Shown here: positions 3,971 through 6,960 of the stretch, one piece after another | Layout of the letters: each line of letters starts with the position of its first letter | Position numbering within the stretch: position 1 is the stretch's first letter | DNA from: a virus | Lineage: Duplodnaviria > Heunggongvirae > Uroviricota > Caudoviricetes | Strand: one strand, 5' to 3' | Length of the DNA stretch: 8,769 bases | Virus record (IMG/VR): IMGVR_UViG_2563366806_000007 | The notes under the pieces: generated by a model | Database searches by the model: none | What the model saw: the letters and a program-made list of their open reading frames with translations, nothing else | Told to the model about the DNA's origin: nothing | Translations under genes and position numbers: made by a program

Positions 3971-4490
3971 TCAGCAACCCCGGTATCAGTTCATCCAGCG
4001 CGGCTGCTTTGTTCATGGCTTTGATGATATCCCGTTTCAGGAAATCAACATGTCGGTTTTCCAGTTCCGGAAAACGCCGCTGCACCGACAGGGGGATCCC
4101 GTCGAGAATACTGGCAATTTCACCTGCGATCCGCGACAGCACGAAAGTACAGAATGCGGTTTCCACCACTTCAGCGGAGTCTCTGGCATTTTTCAGCTCC
4201 TGTGCGTCGGCCTGCGCACGCGTAAGTCGATGGCGTTCGTACTCAATAGTCCCTGGCTGGAGATCTGTCTCGCTGGCCTGCCGCAGTTCTTCAACTTCCC
4301 GGCGCAGCTTTTCGTTCTCAATTTCAGCATCCCTTTCGGCATACCATCTTATAACGGCGGCAGAGTCATAAAGCACCTCATTACCCTTGCCACCGCCTCG
4401 CAGAACGGGCATTCCCTGTTCCTGCCAGTTCTGAATGGTACGGATACTCGCACCGAAAATGTCAGCCAGCTGCTTTTTGTTGACTTCCAT
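3945..4490 (-). CDS. nohA: Terminase small subunit gpNu1 (Qin-type prophages call the homologue NohA)
   Basis: 181-aa ORF MEVNKKQLADIFGASIRTIQNWQEQGMPVLRGGGKGNEVLYDSAAVIRWYAERDAEIENEKLRREVEELRQASE..., recognised as lambda Nu1 with an N-terminal winged-HTH. It sits ~180 bp downstream of cosN on the minus strand, as in lambda. Confidence 0.95.
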
Positions 4491-4511
4491 TGTTCATTCC
4501 ACGGCCAAAAA

Positions 4512-4627
4512 CAGAGAAAGGAAACGACAGAGGCCCAAAAGCTCGTTTTCAGCACCTGTCGTTTCCTTTCTTTTCAGGGGGTATTTTAAATAAAAACATT
4601 AAGTTACGACGAAGAAGAACGGAAATG
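4512..4627 (-). promoter_or_regulatory. cosB terminase-binding region (R1 about 4512-4530, R2 about 4549-4566, R3 about 4608-4627, with an AT-rich IHF-type bend segment about 4580-4606)
   Basis: Minus-strand reading gives GCATTTCCGTTCTTCTTCGTCG (R3), AAAGGAAACGACAGGTGCTGAAAAC (R2) and CTCTGTCGTTTCCTTTCTCTG (R1), matching remembered lambda cosB elements. Spacing relative to cosN and the Nu1 start is lambda-like. Confidence 0.8.
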
Positions 4628-4667
4628 CCTTAAACCGGAAAATTTTCATAAATAGCGAAAACCCGCG

Positions 4668-4679
4668 AGGTCGCCGCCC
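4668..4679. other. cosN, the 12-nt cohesive-end site (GGGCGGCGACCT on the minus strand)
   Basis: Plus strand 4668-4679 is AGGTCGCCGCCC. The minus-strand context CGACAGGTTACG|GGGCGGCGACCT|CGCGGGTTTTCGCTATTTATGAAAATTTTCCGG is the lambda right-end/left-end junction. Confidence 0.9.
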
Positions 4680-4680
4680 C

Positions 4681-4711
4681 GTAACCTGTCGAATCGCCGG
4701 AAAGGACCCGC
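4681..4711 (-). other. cosQ-like region on the right-end side of cosN
   Basis: Minus-strand CGGGTCCTTTCCGGCGATTCGACAGGTTAC closely resembles the lambda right-end sequence GGGTCCTTTCCGGTGATCCGACAGGTTACG, with a few substitutions. Confidence 0.6.
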
Positions 4712-4878
4712 AAAATGATAATAATTATCATCTGCATGTCACAACGTGCATCTACGCAATCAAACCACGTCAAATAATCAATTATGACGCAGATATCGTA
4801 TTAATTGATCTGCATCAACTTAACGTAAAAACAACTTCAGACAATACAAATCAGCGACACTGAATACGGGACAACCTC

Positions 4879-5112
4879 ATGTCAACGAAAAACATAACCC
4901 GCAGAACAACAACCCGCAACATCCGCTTTCCTAACCAAATGATTGAACAAATTAACATCGCTCTTGAGCAAAAAGGGTCCGGGAATTTCTCAGCCTGGGT
5001 CATTGAAGCCTGCCGCCGGAGACTGTGCTCAGAAAAAAGAGTTTCTTCTGAAGCAAACAAAGAAAAGAGTGACATTACTGAATTGCTCAGAAAACAGGTC
5101 AGACCAGATTGA
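4879..5112 (+). CDS. ynfO: YnfO-like small protein with a probable ribbon-helix-helix DNA-binding fold
   Basis: 77-aa ORF MSTKNITRRTTTRNIRFPNQMIEQINIALEQKGSGNFSAWVIEACRRRL..., recognised as Qin-prophage YnfO. The pattern is a beta-strand (NIRFP), helix, G-containing turn, second helix, then a charged tail. No clear Shine-Dalgarno. Confidence 0.8.
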   Translation: MSTKNITRRTTTRNIRFPNQMIEQINIALEQKGSGNFSAWVIEACRRRLCSEKRVSSEANKEKSDITELLRKQVRPD

Positions 5113-5169
5113 AGCAATTTAGATAATCGTGCAGACTACGCCCCCTCATATCACATGGAAGGTTTATCT

Positions 5170-5580
5170 ATGGATCAGGTAGTCATTTTTAAACAAATAT
5201 TTGATAAAGTTCGAAACGATTTAAACTATCAATGGTTTTATTCTGAGCTAAAACGTCACAATGTCTCACATTACATTTACTATTTAGCCACAGAGAATGT
5301 TCATATTGTATTAAAAAATGATAATACAGTGTTATTAAAGGGCCTAAAAAACATTGTGTCTGTCAAATTTTCAAAGGATAGGCATCTTATAGAAACGACC
5401 TCTAATAAGCTGAAATCCAGAGAGATCACATTTCAGGAATACAGAAGAAACCTTGCTAAAGCAGGAGTTTTTCGGTGGGTTACAAATATCCACGAACAAA
5501 AAAGATATTACTATACCTTTGATAATTCATTACTATTTACTGAAAGCATCCAGAAAACTACACAGATCTTACCACGCTAA
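5170..5580 (+). CDS. ydfO: YdfO-like protein of unknown function (DUF1398-type)
   Basis: [50 protein letters not shown]... The ATG at 5170 is preferred over the track's 5155 because GGAAGG at 5157-5162 gives a 7-nt spacer and 136 aa. The gene is AT-rich. Confidence 0.85.
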
Positions 5581-5588
5581 ACCATAAC

Positions 5589-5617
5589 GTCCGGCTTCTC
5601 TCACTCCTGAGCCGGAC
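5589..5617. terminator. Stem-loop between the convergent ydfO and gnsB genes (possible bidirectional terminator, no strong U-tract)
   Basis: 8-bp stem GTCCGGCT/AGCCGGAC with a 13-nt loop, starting 9 nt after the ydfO stop. Confidence 0.3.
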
Positions 5618-5731: not shown

Positions 5732-5905
5732 TCAGATTAAATTAATCTTGACATCATAGCTTTCAAGACCCGTCATTTTTTCCCGTGCGGTAAACTGAAT
5801 ACTGGTAACTTCTTTCCCGGTCTTTTTCTTAAGTTCAATAATTTTTTTTGTTATATATTCAGAAATATCTGCTTCTGCTTTTGTTTTTAAGTTTTCAATA
5901 TTCAT
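5732..5905 (-). CDS. gnsB: GnsB-like 57-aa protein (Gns family)
   Basis: Hand translation of the minus strand gives MNIENLKTKAEADISEYITKKIIELKKKTGKEVTSIQFTAREKMTGLESYDVKINLI*. It is below the ORF-track size cut-off. A Shine-Dalgarno AAGAGGA lies 5-6 nt upstream of the ATG. Confidence 0.9.
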   Translation of the reverse strand: MNIENLKTKAEADISEYITKKIIELKKKTGKEVTSIQFTAREKMTGLESYDVKINLI

Positions 5906-6076
5906 CATTTCCTCTTTTAGTCTGTTATGACTTTCCAGTTACACAGTAAGTCGATTATATGGTGCAAACGTGTAAAAGATAAGATGAAACATCGCAATAA
6001 TCAACATACGATAGTCTAAATTTTACACAAACAGACAAAGAGAATTTTCCTGAATTATCAATGCAATAGCATCAAA

Positions 6077-6232
6077 TCAACTCAAGAGCCTTATTGCTGC
6101 TTCCAGAATTTCTTCTGAAGTAACATGTCGATCCGCGGCTACATAAATGACTTTATGATCTCCGGTCAGAGATGGAAACCCTGCGGCCATTACAGTAAGG
6201 TGTGTTTTTTCGCCATTTGGATATTCACGCAT
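6077..6232 (-). CDS. ynfN: YnfN-like small protein (51 aa from the ATG at 6232; the ORF extends in frame to a GTG at 6268)
   Basis: ORF ...MREYPNGEKTHLTVMAAGFPSLTGDHKVIYVAADRHVTSEEILEAAIRLLS, recognised as Qin-prophage YnfN. Start choice is uncertain: ATG 6232 with GGAG 12 nt upstream, ATG 6253, or GTG 6268. Confidence 0.6.
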   Translation of the reverse strand: MREYPNGEKTHLTVMAAGFPSLTGDHKVIYVAADRHVTSEEILEAAIRLLS

Positions 6233-6350
6233 GATGGTGTTAACTCCAGTCATCGCTGGCACTACCACTGCTGGTTCAGAGTTAAAAAAACTATGATTTT
6301 TTTCATGATGTTACCGTAGTATGTGAGTATCCATCGAATAGACACCAAGC

Positions 6351-6370
6351 AAAAAAGCTCCCGAAGGAGC
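6351..6370 (-). terminator. Intrinsic terminator between cspI and ynfN
   Basis: On the minus strand, stem GCTCC / tetraloop TTCG / GGAGC (6357-6370) is immediately followed by TTTTTTG (6351-6356). Confidence 0.6.
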
Positions 6371-6577
6371 CTTCATTTTCACTTTTTTAAATCCAACGAC
6401 AGACGGCTGGCATTTAAGTATTGTGAAATATTATCAAATGTAATCATCATTGATTTACAAAAGATACATTTTGCCCCGAAAGGATTCATGTCAGAAACAT
6501 CAAAAGATGATGTTCTATACTGGGAACCATGACAACACGGGCATCTAAAGTGAATATGGTTTGTAATATTGTCTACC

Positions 6578-6790
6578 TCAAAGCGCCACTACATGAACAG
6601 CGGCAGGACCTTTAGGTCCGTTCTCAATACCAAATTCAACTTCCTGATTCTCAGTTAATGTTTTGAAATCGTTGCTCTGAATTGCTGAGAAATGGACAAA
6701 CACATCTTTGCTGCCATCTTTCGGCGTGATGAAACCAAAACCTTTTTCAGGGTTAAACCATTTCACTAAACCAGTCATTTTGTTAGACAT
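6578..6790 (-). CDS. cspI: Cold-shock protein, CspA family (CspI-like)
   Basis: 70-aa [73 protein letters not shown] with RNP1-like KGFGFI and RNP2-like VFVHF motifs. Shine-Dalgarno AAAGG upstream in cspA-like context. Confidence 0.95.
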
Positions 6791-6960
6791 AATTATTACC
6801 TTTTGAAGAAATTAGCCCTTGGGCAGAATGGTCCGAAAAAAATATCAGAGAGAAAAACCAACAAGGAAATCTCAAGAGGTACAAATAATAAAATTATAAC
6901 AATGACTGCTTCAGATAAATTTGTAACAAACCAGAACACCATTAACGCATGATTAACCAC
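6791..6960 (-). promoter_or_regulatory. cspI 5' leader and promoter region (long AT-rich untranslated leader typical of cspA-family genes)
   Basis: About 360 bp of AT-rich non-coding sequence lies between the rzpQ stop and the cspI ATG. A perfect TATAAT occurs on the minus strand at 6893-6898 without a good -35; transcription start not determinable by eye. Confidence 0.4.

Follow-up and report, generated by a model that had tools for sequence, protein, structure and literature searches.

The window (the whole 8,769-nucleotide stretch of DNA analyzed here) carries two short neighboring genes about 200 bp from the cosN site of a Qin-like lambdoid prophage. The first, ynfO (4879-5112, + strand), encodes a 77 amino acid protein of the DUF3950 or YlcI-YnfO family, which matches Pfam PF13132 (DUF3950) with an E-value of 2.7e-21 and 75.6 bits (cut-off 25) and lies above threshold for the NCBIfam model YlcI_YnfO_N, NF041551 (36.7 bits, cut-off 30). 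The second open reading frame (5155-5580, + strand, 141 amino acids) is ydfO; its product matches PF07166 (DUF1398) across profile positions 1-119 of 119 (E 1.7e-46, 157.5 bits, cut-off 22) and differs by a single residue from the NMR structure deposited as PDB 2HH8 under the name "hypothetical protein ydfO" (E 2e-90). Although this frame is open from 5155, the ATG at 5170 is a likelier start than the one at 5155, since it has a GGAAGG Shine-Dalgarno sequence (5157-5162, + strand) 7 nt upstream, the ATG at 5155 has none, and the DLP12 orthologue, which keeps the GGAAGG and has only the downstream ATG in frame, can be started only at the equivalent of 5170; ydfO then occupies 5170-5580 and encodes 136 amino acids, in agreement with RefSeq. 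In over 1000 genomes of E. coli, RefSeq names the same DNA ynfO and ydfO, and it annotates the K-12 Qin copies as b4533 (ynfO) and b1549 (ydfO). The Pfam, PDB and RefSeq matches thus all agree with the names that a preliminary description, made from the nucleotide sequence, had given to the two genes, and both are already catalogued E. coli prophage genes that are carried by lambda as well.

All the late genes (S, R and Rz, followed by nohA and terL) lie on the - strand, and ynfO and ydfO therefore run antisense to the late operon. The GC content at the pair is 32-42%, compared with 53-57% in the terminase genes. These strands, the distance to cosN and the base composition bear out the earlier picture of two AT-rich, cos-proximal genes that oppose the late operon. 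The same description had placed them where lambda carries bor; bor does lie there in lambda, but lambda also has homologues of ynfO and ydfO at that place. Both genes are under purifying selection, with dN/dS of 0.04-0.14 in ynfO (codons 1-47) and 0.18-0.23 in ydfO, and both products are soluble and basic.

A number of sites surround the genes. cosN itself, the packaging cut site, was read directly at 4668-4679 on the - strand (AGGTCGCCGCCC as given, GGGCGGCGACCT on the - strand), and alignment of the window to the right ends of lambda and 434 begins at 4680. The sequence AGGACCC (GGGTCCT on the - strand) at 4703-4709 is cosQ, - strand, at a position equivalent to that annotated as cosQ in phage 434. 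A repeat search found a near-perfect palindrome, ATGATAAT-A-ATTATCAT, between cosQ and ynfO (4715-4731); it is kept in DLP12, 434 and L138 and absent from the regions upstream of HNH-type ynfO genes, and we regard it as a candidate protein-binding site. The same search found two interleaved inverted repeats, ATCAATTATGACG/CGTATTAATTGAT and TGACGCAGAT/ATCTGCATCA, at 4777-4817, roughly 60-100 bp upstream of ynfO; they are kept in lambda-type relatives and form a candidate ynfO promoter/operator region. A strict sigma-70 consensus scan returned zero + strand promoters for ynfO or ydfO. Comparison of the lambda-type with the HNH-type ynfO upstream regions found no convincing shared word of 9 or more bases that might be a common operator, which is odd for a simple YnfO autoregulator with an identical DNA-reading strand. 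The 57-bp gap between the genes contains no terminator-like site, and within it GATAAT (5122-5127, + strand), missed by the strict scan, is a candidate -10 element of a ydfO-specific promoter, with a CGATAAT counterpart upstream of ybcV. Beyond the ydfO stop codon, a GC-rich hairpin (TCCGGCT...AGCCGGA, 5590-5616, + strand) that has no T-run and was not called by the terminator scan may mark the end of the ydfO transcript.

A further palindrome, AACAGGTCAGACCAGAT at 5093-5109, resembles a PdhR box and overlaps the last codons of ynfO; it is kept upstream of ybcV in DLP12 and lambda. Published gSELEX PdhR sites are listed for ynfO>ydfO and for ybcV/ybcW, and ybcV mRNA is 10-fold lower in a pdhR mutant (PMC7660256). 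ydfO/ybcV therefore has its own regulatory segment with a conserved PdhR box. Convergent transcription has been reported for ybcW and ylcI.

We examined the claim that YnfO has the layout of a ribbon-helix-helix (RHH) protein. Its residues 1-50 comprise a basic arm, a strand at about residues 12-18, a helix at 19-32, a G33-S-G35 turn and a second helix at 36-50, so that strand, helix, tight turn and helix follow one another within about 45 residues and polar residues alternate with hydrophobic ones in the strand; residues 51-77 form a non-conserved tail, and beyond residue 49-54 the homologues vary freely in both sequence and length. The strand carries an Arc-like N-x-R-[FW]-P motif that is followed by the Gly turn between the helices, and diverse family members conserve K-N-I-R-F-P-x-x-[LM]-I-E-x-I ... 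N-F-S-A-W-V-I-E-A-C. AlphaFold places helices at 19-32 and 34-50 (pLDDT 87-89 over residues 20-50) and leaves the strand unformed in the monomer model, as expected since the RHH strand pairs across the dimer. All seven of seven Foldseek matches in the PDB are RHH proteins (ParD2, a TCP domain and Reg576), with the ParD2 antitoxin the closest and every E-value 5 or more. A profile built from the diverse alignment has a CopG-family RHH protein, 9kkd, as its best PDB match, in register, at E 0.079; the close-homologue alignment gave no match in the same profile search of the PDB, and the CopG protein was reached only with the diverse alignment. hhalign aligns YnfO to Arc in register (E 0.013-0.05), and Pfam RHH_6 matches one distant member of the family (E 0.09). 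YnfO thus shares with Arc, Mnt, CopG and ParD its size, its order of elements, an amphipathic second helix and the Gly turn; it differs from them in having no significant sequence match to the curated RHH families, and its dimerization and DNA binding are predictions. Motif, structure model, structure search and PDB profile search are concordant in favor of the RHH layout, each score being sub-significant alone. From these comparisons and models DUF3950 is very probably an autonomous RHH domain, and YnfO very probably a small DNA-binding protein.

YdfO, for which the NMR structure is available, is a soluble, basic alpha+beta protein and has no hydrophobic segment (maximum KD19 0.48). Its AlphaFold model, built on a shallow alignment, had a pLDDT of 49 and missed 2HH8 in a Foldseek search, so we drew no inference about fold from it. 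A single-sequence match to parafibromin (E 0.014) fell to E 0.7-0.85 with a broader profile and was judged to be due to chance. DUF1398 is labeled a head or envelope protein in PHROG 413 and older lambda records; the gene lies on the anti-structural strand, the protein has no hydrophobic segment and lambdap78, the lambda orthologue of ydfO, is non-essential by CRISPRi, with plaquing unaffected by its knock-down, so we set these labels aside, and they appear to be propagated annotation. YdfO overexpression is said, second-hand, to raise resistance to oxidative stress (via PMC4077768). The other published data that we found on these genes are expression changes (ionic-liquid induction, DicC, PdhR and sabinene), and Wang et al. 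2010 mention neither ynfO nor ydfO. TraDIS calls ydfO essential, a call without a counterpart in the Keio deletion-library data; AT-richness together with the close paralogues ybcV and ycgX can yield such a TraDIS call.

Comparison with relatives shows that ynfO and ydfO belong to different mosaic blocks. By blastn the window has a block at 4401-5041, which contains cos and the N-terminus of ynfO, and a block at 5092-5599, which contains ydfO; between them is a unique 50-bp joint (5042-5091, + strand) inside the ynfO tail, at codons 55-71, flanked by a direct repeat, TGCTCAGAAAA(A/C)AG, at 5026 and 5084. In Stx and HNH-type phages homology to ynfO is limited to codons 1-47. The K-12 Qin prophage has the same order, spacing and neighbors (nohA, cos, ynfO, ydfO, gnsB, ynfN, cspI, rzpQ and rrrQ) as the window, and differs in that its nohA is joined to stfQ, whereas the window has an intact large terminase gene and a portal fragment, with an IS1 at the left end. 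Over 1.9 kb, the best-matching sequences from other E. coli genomes show 99.8-99.9% identity. The right end of lambda (an ylcI-like open reading frame that the lambda reference record leaves unannotated, then lambdap79, lambdap78 and bor) and DLP12 (ylcI, ybcW, ybcV and borD) have the genes in the same cos-proximal place on the anti-late strand, with DNA identity to the window of 94-96% over the first 54 codons of ynfO and 84-85% over the ydfO block. They differ from it in two additions that the window lacks: bor downstream, and a segment of about 600 bp that separates the two genes (about 740 bp apart) and carries ybcW or lambdap79 on the late strand. The earlier suggestion of a paralogous ylcI-ybcV pair at the equivalent place in DLP12 is therefore correct as to presence, but 656 bp separate those genes, and ybcW lies in the interval on the opposite strand. 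The 57-bp spacing of the Qin-type arrangement follows from the absence of the ybcW/lambdap79 segment.

The preliminary description had also suggested that the two genes form a module. Among phage records, 109 have DUF3950 alone, 42 have both domains and 1 has DUF1398 alone; DUF3950 is upstream in the same orientation in 42 of the 43 DUF1398 records, while DUF1398 is present in only 42 of the 151 DUF3950 records. In 5426 E. coli genomes we found 9568 ynfO-like places, and 3011 genomes had a ydfO-like match over 80% or more of the gene; all other ydfO-like matches are partial and are to ycgX, a chromosomal DUF1398 paralogue that is present in nearly all E. coli genomes and has no DUF3950 neighbor. 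The pair is adjacent at 77 of 78 Qin-type loci. Phage Tritos and prophage L028 keep ybcW-DUF1398-gnsB and have no DUF3950, phage 434 has cos-DUF3950-bor and no DUF1398, and in Stx and HNH-TerS phages a lone DUF3950 gene lies 40 bp from HNH. "Homologues" in the lambda arrangement on 3.5-kb and 48.5-kb contigs assigned to Pseudomonas, Kitasatospora, Staphylococcus and others look like contamination by lambda control DNA and so were not counted as independent evidence. An apparent 233 amino acid YnfO-YdfO fusion, which at first suggested a Rosetta-stone link between the proteins, proved to be a gene-calling artefact, as the DNA has a TGA at the joint and no table 11 translation gives the protein. 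The frames at 77 loci (TGA only at 60, a further in-frame stop at 11, and a different frame at 6) show that the in-frame arrangement is not universal, and programmed read-through was therefore dropped. The association is thus one-sided and positional, which does not sustain a two-gene module; nevertheless, the 42 of 43 co-occurrence and the adjacency at 77 of 78 loci may reflect some functional link between ynfO and ydfO.

We think it likely that ynfO and ydfO, which lie at the lysis-cos junction of a lambda-like prophage, are accessory ("moron") genes independent of each other. Like the morons bor and lom they deviate in composition, lie between modules, are independent of the late operon and are patchily distributed among relatives (here lambda, 434, Stx phages, Tritos and L028), with a GC deviation and an orientation opposite to the late genes; Bor differs from them in being an outer-membrane lipoprotein that is known for serum resistance, whereas YnfO and YdfO are soluble and of cytoplasmic type. 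Since the genes are transcribed against the late operon, they would be expected to be expressed from a repressed prophage. YnfO, with its basic N-terminal arm and RHH domain of about 50 residues, would most likely act as a dimeric, sequence-specific transcriptional regulator, and its C-terminal tail would be whatever DNA happens to follow the recombination joint. Inheritance of ynfO would follow that of the packaging module, be it cos-Nu1 or, in other phages, HNH-TerS, and not that of ydfO. YdfO appears dispensable for lytic growth, and our guess is that its most likely role is to modulate the physiology of the lysogenic host. With the Qin-type arrangement, read-through from a ynfO promoter into ydfO could occur.

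If YnfO were instead a dedicated repressor of a ynfO-ydfO transcription unit, the genes would be coupled by regulation, with no toxin or antitoxin involved. Their shared strand, the 57-bp gap without a terminator-like site, the adjacency at Qin-type loci, the upstream, co-oriented DUF3950 in nearly every DUF1398 phage record and the palindromes upstream of ynfO are what such an operon should have. However, in lambda and DLP12 the 600-bp segment with its opposite-strand gene splits the pair, and the reported ybcW/ylcI transcription is convergent; ybcV/ydfO is PdhR-dependent, with a conserved PdhR box of its own; in most phages DUF3950 stands alone; and Tritos and L028 have DUF1398 without it. 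We therefore consider a common repressor operon unlikely.

A broader proposal is that DUF3950 is a conserved DNA-binding factor, encoded on the anti-late strand, of phage and satellite packaging modules and that YdfO is one of several interchangeable cargo proteins under the DUF3950 promoter. We hold this to be quite unlikely; were it true, DUF3950 might act on DNA at cos or near the terminase genes, for instance to exclude related phages, in competition between phages and satellites, or to control transcription across cos. A narrower form, in which YnfO is a DNA-binding factor linked to cos and terminase (acting in terminase transcription, cos use or satellite competition) and ydfO an unrelated neighbor, seems to us slightly less probable still. 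DUF3950 adjoins, and is divergent from, the first packaging gene in the unrelated Nu1/GpA and HNH plus Terminase_2 systems, and a DUF1441-type block that replaces the cos-Nu1 block removes DUF3950 as well. DUF3950 genes also occur in PICI-like satellites, one of whose proteins has the domain fused to the DNA-binding N-terminus of a small terminase; this fusion is a real open reading frame, 64% identical to the N-terminus of a prophage TerS. On the other hand, ynfO is antisense to the late transcript and so poorly placed for a late function, the linkage may be hitch-hiking at a recombination hotspot, and a distant DUF3950 member sits in a non-phage chromosomal context. Furthermore, cos, terminase and IHF suffice for lambda in vitro packaging and for cosmids.

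The remaining idea, raised in the preliminary description as a toxin-antitoxin, exclusion or defence module, is that YnfO is an RHH antitoxin whose tail neutralizes a YdfO toxin in a type II toxin-antitoxin or abortive-infection pair. The arrangement does recall RHH antitoxins of the ParD, RelB and CcdA class, in that a small protein with an N-terminal RHH domain and a C-terminal extension is encoded first, followed by a small uncharacterized protein; ParD2 is the nearest Foldseek match, and the adjoining gnsB is annotated in an addiction-module toxin family, as though the region gathers such genes. In those systems the antitoxin C-terminus is conserved to match its toxin; the YnfO tail is hypervariable, changes without regard to the downstream gene and is here a recombination joint. 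The two families are not mutually co-inherited: at least two thirds of DUF3950 genes have no DUF1398 partner and DUF1398 stands alone in the isolated phage Tritos, in L028 and as ycgX. Nor do the genes form a tight bicistronic operon: the reading frames neither overlap nor couple closely, the interval of 57 bp here is about 740 bp, with an opposite-strand gene, in lambda and DLP12, each gene belongs to its own block, ydfO has a separate PdhR box, and the apparent fusion was an artefact. YdfO was made alone for the 2HH8 NMR work and so is presumably not strongly toxic, and ynfO is absent from the list of genes that TraDIS alone calls essential. A search of PADLOC-DB models with a threshold of E 1 matched none of YnfO, YdfO, GnsB and YnfN. 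A toxin-antitoxin or defence pair is thus not supported, and we regard it as highly improbable.

Treating ynfO and ydfO as separate accessory genes avoids a tempting misannotation as a toxin-antitoxin or defence pair. The DUF3950 domain has recombination joints directly after it and travels with packaging modules and not with DUF1398. These K-12 "y-genes" are also in lambda, the best-studied phage, and thereby belong to the small number of its genes whose function has yet to be found; current understanding is otherwise unchanged by our results. Finally, lambdap79 is reported to trigger the Vulcan NADase defence, which phages escape by recombining with Qin and so losing the gene. Taking lambdap79 out of the lambda arrangement leaves the Qin-type one, and such a lambda by Qin recombination would give the arrangement seen in the window.

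The window corresponds to a lambdoid E. coli prophage that resembles Qin, and K-12 Qin itself shows the same ynfO/ydfO arrangement. Its late genes lie on the minus strand: holin, YdfR, lysozyme and Rz (8769-7152) are followed, in late-gene order, by cspI, ynfN and gnsB, and beyond cos (cosN, AGGTCGCCGCCC, at 4668-4679; cosQ at 4703-4709) by nohA/Nu1 (4490-3945), the large terminase gene (3970-2045) and then gpW and a portal fragment, with an IS1 (insA/insB, 1-770) at the left end. The plus strand of the cos-gnsB interval contains a 77-aa ORF at 4879-5112 and a 141-aa ORF at 5155-5580; GC content there is 32-42% versus 53-57% in the terminase genes, which bears out the preliminary description's report of two AT-rich ORFs antisense to the late operon near cos.

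Several features of the surrounding DNA were also noted. In a 296-aa ORF (955-1845) the N-terminus is that of a portal protein and the C-terminus that of a tail-fibre-assembly protein, and most structural genes of the prophage have therefore been lost by deletion; Rfam IS009 is matched at 989-1187. The gnsB gene (Pfam 'GnsA/GnsB toxin'; 5732-5908, minus) is convergent with ydfO, the closest RefSeq genome records a frameshift in the counterpart of gnsB's upstream neighbor ynfN (6077-6306, minus), and the very small annotated genes ynfR and ymcF/ynfQ fall at about 6311-6567. The cold-shock gene cspI sits inside the late operon, with Rz on one side and gnsB on the other, and its leader is a cspA-type RNA thermoregulator (6551-6935, minus; Rfam RF01766, 114 bits). 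The sole sigma-70-like promoter match of the cos region (4715-4742, minus; GTGACA, 16 nt, TATCAT) overlaps a ATGATAATAATTATCAT palindrome and is directed from it toward cos and nohA.

The two ORFs are genuine, already known genes. The first matches Pfam DUF3950 (E 2.7e-21) and the second DUF1398 (E 1.7e-46), the second product differs from PDB 2HH8 ('hypothetical protein ydfO') at one residue, and RefSeq names identical DNA ynfO and ydfO. Of 5426 complete E. coli genomes, 1033 match the surrounding 1.9-kb region over 80% or more of its length. Both genes are under purifying selection (dN/dS 0.04-0.14 for ynfO codons 1-47 and 0.18-0.23 for ydfO). The ydfO start appears better placed at 5170 than at 5155, since GGAAGG lies 7 nt upstream, RefSeq chose it and it is the only in-frame ATG in DLP12. 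A YdfO helix (residues ~83-103, window 5410-5480) faintly resembles a phycobilisome linker-domain motif (ApcE, E 0.3-0.9), probably by chance.

YnfO is a basic protein (pI 10.3) that lacks any hydrophobic segment. Its residues 1-49 are near-invariant in close relatives, while the tail beyond residue 49 varies freely, and diverse DUF3950 members share the motif K-N-I-R-F-P-x-x-[LM]-I-E-x-I ... N-F-S-A-W-V-I-E-A-C, which reads as a strand of alternating polar and hydrophobic residues with an Arc-like [FW]-P end and, after it, a predicted helix, short Gly/Ser turn and second helix. AlphaFold gives coil at 1-18 and helices at 19-32 and 34-73 (pLDDT 87-89 for residues 20-50); the strand should form only upon dimerisation. 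All seven Foldseek matches to the PDB are RHH (ribbon-helix-helix) folds (ParD2 antitoxin, TCP domain, Reg576; E at least 5), the top PDB match of a profile of diverse DUF3950 members is the CopG-family RHH protein 9kkd, in register (E 0.079), and hhalign superposes the YnfO strand on that of Arc. Each of these tests is individually below significance, but all point in the same direction, and YnfO is very probably an RHH protein, as had been proposed. Lambda-type and HNH-type phages have the same RHH strand, yet we saw no obvious operator common to their ynfO upstream regions; the YnfO target may therefore be other than the gene's own promoter.

Reading away from cos on the strand opposite to late transcription, the lambda reference record has first a ylcI-like ORF without annotation, then lambdap79 (ybcW-like, itself on the late strand), lambdap78 and bor, and DLP12 has the same order (ylcI, ybcW, ybcV, borD). 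The ylcI-like DUF3950 ORF lacks a CDS in NC_001416 (~48110-48304, complement; tblastn 96% identity). The DUF1398 gene lambdap78 is mislabelled 'head protein' and 'putative envelope protein'; the former label in NC_001416 looks propagated rather than tested. Thus the DLP12 genes ylcI and ybcV named in the preliminary description exist, but 656 bp and a gene on the other strand separate them, and the pair lies beside bor near cos rather than in its place. The window's arrangement is that of lambda and DLP12 minus a ~600-bp segment with ybcW/lambdap79. Lambdap79 is reported to activate the Vulcan NADase defence, and lambda-vir escape mutants reportedly lose it through recombination with Qin (preprint, 10.64898/2026.09.04.749371); such recombination would yield the junction of ynfO and ydfO found in the window. 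When YdfO relatives were sought genome-wide, the matches also included dozens of contigs of 3.5 kb and 48.5 kb assigned to unrelated organisms; every one has the lambda arrangement, and they look like lambda control DNA contaminating assemblies; contigs L008-L047, ascribed to Pseudomonas, Kitasatospora, Brevibacillus, Staphylococcus, a spider and others, carry the lambda right end, and many database 'homologues' are error-laden translations of such DNA.

We searched a phage collection with a synthetic YnfO(1-49)+YdfO protein. Co-occurrence is one-sided: among the 152 records found, 42 have both (DUF3950 lying upstream on the same strand, no more than 1.3 kb away), 109 DUF3950 only and one, phage Tritos, DUF1398 only. 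Individual contexts agree: phage 434 has cos-DUF3950-bor, Stx and other HNH-TerS phages carry a solitary DUF3950 gene that diverges from the HNH gene at a distance of ~40 bp, and in one prophage (L028) a DUF1441-type packaging gene replaces the cos-Nu1-DUF3950 block while ybcW-DUF1398-gnsB is kept. Across the 5426 E. coli genomes there are 9568 ynfO-like loci, with as many as 12 in one genome, and 3011 genomes have ydfO-like matches (at least 80% of the gene); the other such matches are partial ones to the chromosomal paralogue ycgX, within 6 kb of which there is no DUF3950.

Pairwise alignment places the genes in separate homology blocks: 4401-5041 (cos and ynfO codons 1-54) is 94-96% identical to lambda, DLP12 and 434, and 5092-5599 is 84-85% identical to lambdap78/ybcV, so that the last six ynfO codons and stop codon belong to the ydfO block. 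The unique joint (5042-5091) is flanked by a direct repeat, TGCTCAGAAAA(A/C)AG, at 5026 and 5084. The ydfO block opens with AACAGGTCAGACCAGAT (5093-5109), which is among the listed PdhR gSELEX sites at this position and also ahead of ybcV, whose mRNA is 10-fold down in a pdhR mutant (PMC7660256); ydfO/ybcV thus brings its own regulatory DNA.

The preliminary description had suggested a toxin-antitoxin, exclusion or defence module. The pair fails the sequence-testable defining features of a type II toxin-antitoxin system, given the one-sided co-occurrence and separate blocks, zero matches of YnfO or YdfO to PADLOC defence models, a CRISPRi screen (PMC10695390) that found lambdap78 dispensable for plaquing, and the production of YdfO alone for its NMR structure; solitary DUF3950 genes and ydfO's own regulatory DNA also count against a module. 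Neither a toxin-antitoxin nor a defence role is supported. A 233-aa database YnfO-YdfO 'fusion' was rejected as an artefact of TGA read as Trp.

Most likely, then, ynfO and ydfO are accessory genes that are independent of each other and transcribed counter to the late operon. We infer that YnfO would regulate as an RHH dimer bound to DNA, with approximately its first 50 residues as the functional unit, and that YdfO, a soluble, basic alpha+beta protein, would be under PdhR-linked control and would affect the physiology of the lysogenic host; ynfO to ydfO read-through may occur in the Qin-type layout.

DUF3950 adjoins both Nu1-type cos and HNH plus Terminase_2, and is also present in PICI-like satellites, in one of which a genuine ORF fuses it to the DNA-binding N-terminal portion of a small terminase (64% identical to the N-terminus of a prophage TerS). 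This association with packaging genes could be hitch-hiking at a recombination hotspot, and we consider a real link of DUF3950 to cos-proximal DNA very unlikely. The satellite (L054/L055 4590-5363; E. coli CP027459, AP026754) has an integrase, D5-type primase, its own TerS and capsid, and two DUF3950 genes on the strand opposite to its other genes. The fusion gene, with 53 N-terminal residues of a Terminase_2 small terminase, is preceded by repeated GTTTAACAC motifs, and the non-fused gene by TATAAT between paired TGGTACGTACCA palindromes. Finally, a distant member (56% identical; L150 4001-4180) immediately follows genes for cytochrome bd oxidase at a chromosomal site unrelated to phage, and the DUF3950 family is therefore not strictly phage-bound.
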